Shown here in pieces: positions 3,743 through 3,902 of a DNA stretch of 20,897 bases. The DNA lies in IMG/VR virus record IMGVR_UViG_3300032271_002180. One strand, 5' to 3'. The notes beneath the pieces were generated by a model. That model searched no databases. It had not been told where the DNA came from and was given only the letters and a program-made list of their open reading frames with translations. Numbering within the stretch: position 1 is the first letter of the stretch; each line of letters opens with the position of its first letter. Source of the stretch: a virus. Position numbers and translations under genes: made by a program.

Positions 3743-3902
3743 TGGTCGGAGAGATAGGATTCGAACCTACGATCTCCTGCTCATCTTGGGAACTTCAGCT
3801 TTAGGCTGCTCTTCCCCACAAACACCACGATCTCCCGTAGTGCTGGAACGCTCTCACGCTCTCATCCAAAGCAGGCGCCTTACCAGACTTGGCCACTCTC
3901 CG
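3743..3902 (-). tRNA. tRNA (anticodon UGG, Pro-like) with a roughly 82-nt insertion in the anticodon loop at 37/38
   Basis: Perfect 7-bp acceptor (CGGAGAG / CTCTCCG), discriminator A and CCA. D-arm GCC-AAGTCTGGTAA-GGC. Anticodon stem CCTGC ... GCAGG is split by about 82 nt. T-arm GTAGG-TTCGAAT-CCTAT. The spliced product would be about 77 nt. Confidence 0.5.

Follow-up and report, generated by a model that had tools for sequence, protein, structure and literature searches.

The stretch analysed here (the window) comprises 20,897 nt of IMG/VR virus record IMGVR_UViG_3300032271_002180 and forms a tRNA island whose tRNA genes, at least 18 in number, all lie on the minus strand. At 3902..3743 (-) lies a complete bacterial-type tRNA-Pro(UGG) gene that is split by one 83-nt insert in its anticodon loop. 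The Rfam tRNA model (RF00005) matched both halves jointly, scoring 52.6 bits (E = 6e-9 over the window) across model positions 1-71 and leaving a single unaligned block of 85 nt in the anticodon loop. ARAGORN missed the interrupted gene in default mode; with introns allowed, it called tRNA-Pro(tgg) at c[3743,3902] with an 83-nt intron and a cloverleaf after intron removal. The full-model match and the intron-mode call agree with the original prediction, made from the letters of the window, of a single tRNA gene interrupted by an intron-like insert rather than two elements. Its estimate of about 82 nt held for the interruption and not for the size, which is 83 nt by ARAGORN and by comparison with an uninterrupted gene in a close relative.

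The joined exons have the cloverleaf, the D-loop and T-loop bases, the UGG anticodon followed by G37, and the C1-G72 pair, discriminator A73 and encoded CCA of a bacterial-type tRNA-Pro(UGG). All 7 acceptor pairs are Watson-Crick (CGGAGAG/CUCUCCG), G18G19 are present, and the anticodon stem CCUGC/GCAGG has 5 bp. The T arm reads GUAGG-UUCGAAU-CCUAU, with the T loop GTTCGAATC. Both Rfam and ARAGORN recover the 7-bp acceptor and the CCTGC/GCAGG anticodon stem pointed out at the outset. No second, intact tRNA-Pro(UGG) was seen in the source, a 28.6-kb metagenome scaffold of the European Nucleotide Archive (ENA).

The exact boundaries come from the closest relative, L006, which has a vault-like protein with 95% identity to that of the window and, in the same neighbourhood, an uninterrupted tRNA-Pro(UGG). 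Its anticodon arm, GCCUGC-UUUGGGA-GCAGGAGAUCGU, equals the window exons joined at the ARAGORN junction, and only this placement reproduces its loop, TTTGGGA. Because the uninterrupted gene fixes the junction, the insert lies between G36 and G37 and measures 83 nt, with G37 and A38 coming from the 3' exon. Position 36/37 is one away from the archaeal and eukaryal 37/38, the canonical site to which the insert had at first been assigned. After removal, the exons would be expected to meet as ...CCUGCUUUGG and GAGCAGG..., also written GGCGCCTGCTTTGG and GAGCAGGAGATCGTAGG. A GATGAG direct repeat across both junctions was considered as a target-site duplication and rejected, because one retained copy would make a 9-nt loop, in conflict with the TTTGGGA of L006.

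Homologous inserts were found with an exon-anchored scan of Joint Genome Institute (JGI) metagenomes, using the pattern CCTGCTTTGG N60-90 GAGCAGGAGATC. Of the 19 stretches returned, 5 are tandem tRNA-Pro genes and most others are chance matches. A homologous 83-nt insert occupies the identical site in four contigs, namely L107, L108 and the identical pair L102 and L106, giving four distinct sequences, the window included, at 78-95% identity. The interrupted gene is therefore present in five independent assemblies, which rules out an assembly artefact. Apart from two D-loop differences, the L108 exons equal the L006 tRNA, so the same tRNA exists with and without the insert. A covariance model (R1) built from the four copies retrieved only the five known copies across 1.79 Mb of related phage DNA. 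Exact-pattern scans of IMG/VR for the insert gave 0 matches, and the invariant motif of its third hairpin (HP3) had 0 exact matches in IMG/VR or in 185,579 species genomes. One further tRNA, at L029 338-513 (Rfam, 34.3 bits), has an insert of about 94 nt that holds GAUGAGA and then ACGGGAGAUCG; both strings also occur in the 83-nt intron, and the 11-mer match, taken by itself, is no better than chance (E = 24).

The copies also record how the element and its host gene have changed. Introns of L107 and L108 are 95% identical, whereas their tRNA backbones (outer exons) are 62-63% identical. The intron-bearing tRNA-Pro(UGG) of L107 (6-165) appears chimeric, with a C7.C66 acceptor mismatch; the 3' outer exon matches the window's exactly, and the 5' outer exon shows only 70% identity to it. 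This discord between intron and backbone, together with the chimeric L107 gene, implies that the insert moves laterally or recombines. In the window and L102, two intron carriers with a common tRNA backbone, the stem differences are compensatory: A4-U69 to G-C, and a T-stem U-A to C-G. The interrupted tRNA body has therefore remained under selection.

The insert folds into three hairpins (HP1, HP2 and HP3) and an invariant 3' tail. RNAalifold independently returned the three hairpins, lengthening HP1 by U-A and G-C pairs with an A bulged. Across the four precursors, 97.7% of the paired cells in the cloverleaf and three-hairpin structure hold standard pairs, and 16 pairs are altered on both sides. 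None of 500 column shuffles reached any of five measures of this agreement, and sliding the partners by 1-3 columns as a control lowered pairing to 36-44%. Compensatory pairs number three in HP2 and 4 of 4 in the inner stem of HP3, and two HP1 pairs alternate between G.U/U.G and G-C/U-A. Since the G.U pairs of the hairpins are found only on the tRNA-sense strand, the constraint acts on RNA and not on DNA.

Conservation extends beyond the helices. Variable intron columns make up 3 of 37 unpaired versus 17 of 46 paired positions (Fisher p = 0.004). The copies do not differ in either GAGA loop, in the CUAAA loop, in the GAG/AAG internal loop or in the strands UGA, UUGUG and AAGAU. Near-invariant unpaired bases of this kind point to sequence-specific recognition or to tertiary structure. 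The minimum-free-energy fold of the precursor adds U32-A38 and U33.G37 to the anticodon stem, on top of which the three hairpins make a four-way junction. A tandem GAGAGCG repeat had been noted in the insert. The letters GAGAGCG-T-GAGAGCG do occur at 3849-3863 (GAGAGCG-T-GAGAACG in the homologues), and they are better read as the two strands of the G.U-containing HP1 than as a repeat.

Table 1. Coordinates of the interrupted tRNA-Pro(UGG), of other features of the window and of short tRNA inserts in related contigs (window positions unless a contig is named).
Feature	Position	Strand	Description	Basis or context
5' exon	3866..3902	-	acceptor CGGAGAG, D arm, CCUGC, loop U32 U33 U34 G35 G36	Rfam alignment, ARAGORN intron mode, sequence extraction
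Anticodon UGG of tRNA-Pro	3868-3866	-	within 5' exon	
83-nt insert	3783..3865	-	AUGAGAGCG...UUCCCAAGAU, between G36 and G37	ARAGORN, L006 gene, homologues L102/L106, L107, L108
Hairpin HP1	3846..3861	-	GAGCGU-GAGA-GCGUUC, 6-bp stem, GNRA-type loop	folding, RNAalifold
Hairpin HP2	3822..3843	-	8-9 bp stem, GAGA cap	covariation, RNAalifold
Hairpin HP3	3788..3816	-	outer GGGAA/UUCCC, 3x3 internal loop GAG/AAG and CUAAA loop, all invariant; inner stem 4 bp	
3' tail AAGAU	3783..3787	-	invariant; reaches 3' junction	
3' exon	3743..3782	-	G37 A38, GCAGG, variable loop, T arm, CUCUCCG, A73, CCA	Rfam, ARAGORN intron mode, sequence extraction
Second interrupted tRNA	13366..13502	-	64-nt anticodon-loop insert	ARAGORN intron mode, label His(GUG)
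NADAR gene	482-916	-		follows vault-like gene
Major-vault-protein-like gene	946-3450	-	834 aa	beside tRNA clusters in many huge-phage contigs
phrog_655 homing endonuclease	7923-8657	-		among tRNA genes
PD-(D/E)XK/TnsA-like nuclease	9061-9789	-	242 aa, N-terminal Cys-rich region	among tRNA genes
ADP-ribosylglycohydrolase gene	9853-10692	-		near vault-like and NADAR genes
HNH_3 protein	18229-18975	+		among tRNA genes
48-51-nt insert loci	L006 13031-13158; L011 12736-12861 (= L012 3833-3958), 3635-3774			
48-51-nt insert loci	L014 10602-10726, 347-484, 1386-1525; L010 17811-17936			

Interrupted tRNAs recur both in the window and among its relatives. We favour tRNA-Gln(UUG) over the ARAGORN label for the second interrupted tRNA of the window, because it has U1-A72 and G73, neighbours a tRNA-Gln(CUG) and best matches the tRNA-Gln(UUG) of L011. 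Its 64-nt insert comprises a closing helix GGUGA/UCACC, a CGG-UGCAAAU-CCG hairpin and a tail AAAAAU. Rfam did not report this tRNA, and an exon-anchored scan for it returned one non-tRNA chance match (L114). At least 8 other interrupted tRNAs occur in related huge-phage contigs, all with the insert in the anticodon loop between 33/34 and 36/37. These positions span the range of bacterial group I tRNA introns, and most of the inserts do not follow a U.

Inserts of about 50 nt, the convincing cases among 114 related loci, share a design of their own. Their closing stem begins with the first base of the intron, and each further has one hairpin, a T-arm mimic made of a 5-bp stem and a UUCRAUY loop, and an A-rich tail of 4-8 nt, usually with AU at its end. 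In the T-arm-like stem, 4 of 5 pairs covary. In related huge-phage contigs, the genes found to carry such inserts, of 48-51 nt, are Pro(CGG), Arg(CCG), Leu(UAA) and Leu(CAA) (Table 1). Two of these genes, at L011 12736-12861 and L014 10602-10726, share the backbone UGAACUCGCCU...AAGCGAG and a homologous intron and differ in anticodon, CCG (Arg) versus CGG (Pro), in what appears to be an anticodon switch; the closing stems of their introns are compensatory (AAGAU/AUCUU versus GGGAU/AUCCC). The gene at L102 5761-5902 (= L106 3630-3771), 'Asn(att)' to ARAGORN, is read here as a class II tRNA-Ser(GCU) whose C35 and U36 are separated by a T-arm-type insert of 49 nt. The L102/L106 contig carries both this insert and the 83-nt intron, and CCAAGAU ends both of these otherwise unrelated sequences.

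In more distant contigs, a tRNA-Thr(UGU) with a 68-nt insert occurs at L040 6815-6957, L042 8047-8189, L046 4171-4313 and L054 4817-4959. These inserts resemble a small tRNA, with an acceptor-like stem, a T arm UGAG-UUCAAAU-CUCA and an end C-N-CCA-U in which N is variable, and they also resemble the Thr(TGT) intron described in a Lak phage in 2019. At L067 483-608, the 49-nt insert of a tRNA-Leu(UAA) is closed by the 7-bp stem GUCUGAU/AUCAGGC, and ACCA comes directly after this stem, at the 3' junction. This mimic of an acceptor stem plus CCA suggests that tRNA end-processing enzymes might define the splice sites.

Between the tRNA genes of the window lie genes for a vault-like protein, a NADAR protein, an ADP-ribosylglycohydrolase, an Asp/Asn hydroxylase-like protein, an RNase T-like exonuclease and three homing-type endonucleases. 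The vault-like protein has 5176 homologues at E <= 1e-20, with relatives on contigs of 384-405 kb; among GenBank phages, it matches only uncultured huge phages of 462 and 735 kb, with 38-39% identity. From these relatives and matches, we assign the interrupted tRNA to an uncultivated huge phage, which gives a definite setting to the bacterial or phage-like surroundings recognized in the original prediction. Several tRNA calls in the window are odd in other ways (15225-15298, 15128-15218, 14965-15039, 7638-7707, 14723-14794 and 15308-15380, all minus strand). The anticodon loop of one is 6 nt long (ARAGORN '???', anticodon 'tc'; Rfam 58.6 bits). ARAGORN labels three others 'Trp(CCA)', including one of 91 nt that has a long extra arm, and two were detected by Rfam alone.

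Candidate processing factors near the intron were considered individually. The predicted structure of the 242-aa PD-(D/E)XK protein (predicted local distance difference test, pLDDT, 83) gave a best Foldseek E of 0.04 against the PDB, with weak matches to Bax1, influenza PA and Vsr-like nucleases. The protein has many homologues on small contigs, in keeping with a mobile DNA endonuclease. An upstream gene of 357/374 aa (4058-5182) was rejected as a cognate factor: it has no family match, and in L102 its counterpart is 1.7 kb and three tRNAs from the intron. Among the compared loci this gene occurs only in the window and L102/L106. A weak RNA_ligase Pfam match was present in L013; no counterpart of that gene was seen in the other loci compared, all of them short genome slices.

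The best explanation of these observations is that the insert belongs to a hitherto unclassified family of small, highly structured tRNA introns of huge phages. We put a probability of roughly 0.55 on its being a true RNA-level intron, removed by two endonucleolytic cuts that the folded module guides and by subsequent joining with an RNA ligase. In such a pathway, the gene would be transcribed as a 160-nt precursor whose tRNA body folds normally, and the 83-nt insert would form its three hairpins, of which two have GAGA tetraloops, as a four-way junction from the anticodon stem. This module would be the recognition or catalytic element for cuts at G36/A and U/G37, with a protein nuclease the more plausible cutter than the RNA itself. 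An RtcB-type or Rnl-type ligase of the phage or its host may then join the exons and restore the loop UUUGGGA. Several findings argue for removal. All tRNA features are intact, and taking 83 nt out on paper yields the L006 anticodon arm exactly. Selection acts on the RNA fold that the insert adopts in the sense orientation, every insert in this phage clade sits in an anticodon loop, and interrupted tRNAs are systematic, with a second in the window and at least 8 in related contigs. The compensatory stem changes between the window and L102, and the lack of an intact tRNA-Pro(UGG) copy in the source scaffold, point the same way.

Other facts weigh against splicing by cutting and ligation. Splicing is read here from DNA sequence, and any insertion lacking a target duplication would also excise precisely on paper. 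The fold draws on four distinct sequences at 78-95% identity, and the invariance of the anticodon arm is uninformative, its sequence having been fixed by the scan pattern. The discord between L107 and L108, a 95%-identical intron in 62-63% identical tRNA bodies, means that part of the exon covariation predates the arrival of the intron. No splicing nuclease or ligase was found in the 20.9-kb window, where the only nuclease-like proteins resemble DNA homing endonucleases; the PD-(D/E)XK protein was rejected as an EndA-like splicing nuclease, with no significant PDB match and none to EndA among the 50 listed. Three homing-type endonuclease genes within the tRNA island count against removal or are neutral to it.

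These genes also bear on the possibility that the insert is never removed, the tRNA-Pro having been inactivated by a selfish insert spread through homing or recombination, or its body serving as a scaffold for a functional 83-nt RNA. An intron-less gene for the same tRNA in a close relative fits this account, as do the lateral movement evident from L107 and L108, the chimeric L107 gene with its C7.C66 mismatch, and an insert fold whose selection could equally reflect an independent RNA function. We nevertheless regard permanent retention as rather unlikely. The inserts of the clade are confined to anticodon loops, found nowhere else in tRNA or genome, as expected if removal depends on tRNA context; compensatory changes kept the stems of the window and L102 paired; no intact second tRNA-Pro(UGG) accompanies the interrupted one in the scaffold; and hairpin G.U pairs on the tRNA-sense strand imply action at the RNA level. 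A mobile element of the miniature inverted-repeat transposable element (MITE) or insertion sequence (IS) type, an alternative raised at the outset, was rejected: the insert has no terminal inverted repeats, no target-site duplication relative to L006 and no dispersed copies elsewhere in 1.79 Mb.

If the insert is removed, the RNA might do the work itself. The 83-nt module would then be a ribozyme that is self-splicing, or that self-cleaves at one or both junctions and leaves joining to RtcB or another ligase. Phage tRNAs are known to have small self-cleaving ribozymes beside them. The compact multi-helix junction with two GNRA tetraloops also fits, and the conserved internal loop and near-invariant unpaired bases form a pattern typical of ribozymes. 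That near-invariance keeps autocatalysis alive, and the failure to find a splicing nuclease nearby is in its favour. Against it, cmscan of the 351 nt at 3650-4000 with E up to 10 returned only the tRNA and four noise matches, with no Rfam intron or ribozyme family and specifically no hammerhead, twister, twister-sister, pistol, hatchet, hairpin or hepatitis delta virus (HDV)-like match. By eye, an HDV-like reading was rejected, as was a hammerhead-like one, whose partial GAUGA is broken in L102 (GGUUGA) and whose GAA strand is missing. A group I intron is excluded by the 83-nt length, a 5' exon ending in G36 rather than U, an intron ending in U rather than G, and the lack of an Rfam match. A group II intron is excluded by length, a start of AUGAG or UUGAG instead of GUGYG, and again no Rfam match. 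The original prediction had likewise judged the insert far too small for group I. One small fold would moreover have to serve two sites, at 83 nt far below the size of any known self-splicing intron. Autocatalysis is on balance improbable. Slightly more doubtful still is its fuller form, in which the four-way junction would represent a new class of very small autocatalytic tRNA intron that cleaves or splices itself out, one of several mini-intron families of huge phages, possibly timing or protecting phage tRNA function during infection.

Least probable, to the point that we give it very little credence, is an archaeal or eukaryal-type intron cut at a bulge-helix-bulge by an EndA-like endonuclease. 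The original prediction had suggested such a motif from the complementarity of TTGG and CCAA, and UUGG (33-36) can indeed pair with CCAA near the 3' junction of an intron that lies within the anticodon loop. When the precursor was folded, however, the required geometry of a 4-bp helix and two 3-nt bulges could not be placed around the true splice sites, which are at 36/37. Forcing the UUGG/CCAA helix costs 5.1-5.6 kcal/mol relative to the minimum-free-energy fold in all four homologues, yields a 4-nt bulge without an outer helix, and removes two pairs of the outer HP3 stem that every copy and RNAalifold retain. The three covariation-backed hairpins leave no room for the motif. No EndA-family endonuclease was found among the window proteins, and EndA was likewise absent from the 50 listed PDB matches of the PD-(D/E)XK model.

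Bacteria and their viruses are thought to hold only self-splicing group I and, rarely, group II introns in their tRNA genes, whereas tRNA introns spliced by proteins are regarded as typical of archaea and eukaryotes. The original prediction had called a short intron in a bacterial-type tRNA unusual; that judgement holds, as does the observation itself, which is statistically solid. The locus offers exact splice junctions by way of the intron-less gene, a compact fold backed by covariation and several natural variants, and it gives evidence of unrelated mini-intron families within one genome. If spliced, the insert would imply a nuclease-plus-ligase pathway in a bacterial virus, with a natural role for phage or host RtcB and Rnl ligases, or alternatively an 83-nt RNA that catalyses its own removal. 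Either route would alter the view of how tRNA introns are distributed and originated. The element could also reveal a means by which phages gate or shield their own tRNAs.

Set against known systems, the 83-nt insert resembles the bacterial group I introns of tRNA-Leu(UAA) (34/35) and tRNA-Arg (36/37) in its bacterial-type tRNA, its GNRA tetraloops, the homing endonuclease genes nearby and its position, since 36/37 is a known group I site. It differs from them in having no P1-P9 core or Rfam match and in its ends, G not U for the exon and U not G for the intron; the smallest natural group I introns are about 200 nt or more. With archaeal and eukaryal bulge-helix-bulge introns it shares shortness, a place adjoining the anticodon and intron bases that can pair with the anticodon region. 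Unlike them, it sits at 36/37 rather than 37/38, has no bulge-helix-bulge geometry, is strongly conserved in sequence and fold, and occurs in a bacterial-virus context in whose window EndA was not detected. The T-arm-type inserts of about 50 nt belong to the same phage clade (the same contig in L102/L106), occupy the same loop and have a similar A-rich 3' tail, usually ending in AU, whereas the 83-nt family has neither a T-arm mimic nor a closing stem. Jumbo phages commonly encode RtcB and Rnl1/Rnl2 ligases, along with end-healing enzymes, that seal anticodon-loop breaks, which, like the weak RNA_ligase match of L013, favours the proposed joining step.

The nearest precedent is the set of 'enigmatic' tRNA introns, some of them tRNA-like, in Lak megaphages and other huge phages (Devoto et al. 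2019, Nat Microbiol; bioRxiv 10.1101/356790), an observation that a 2026 jumbo-phage survey repeats without a mechanism. As far as its text shows, the 2019 study did not demonstrate their actual removal, and our literature search found no paper that characterises the splicing of huge-phage tRNA introns. The Lak introns are likewise short inserts in phage tRNA anticodon loops, conserved between genomes, present or absent between related genomes, and without an Rfam class or a splicing route. The 83-nt insert falls within this class, which is defined by description alone, without mechanism or model. It comes from another phage lineage (environmental rather than gut Lak), another tRNA and another intron sequence, and unlike the tRNA-like Lak Thr(TGT) intron, as described there, it is a three-hairpin module with GNRA loops and no T-arm-like hairpin. 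Relative to the Lak report, it gains here a covariation-supported fold and exact boundaries. The element is thus a defined sequence and structure family within a phenomenon that had been reported earlier without explanation.

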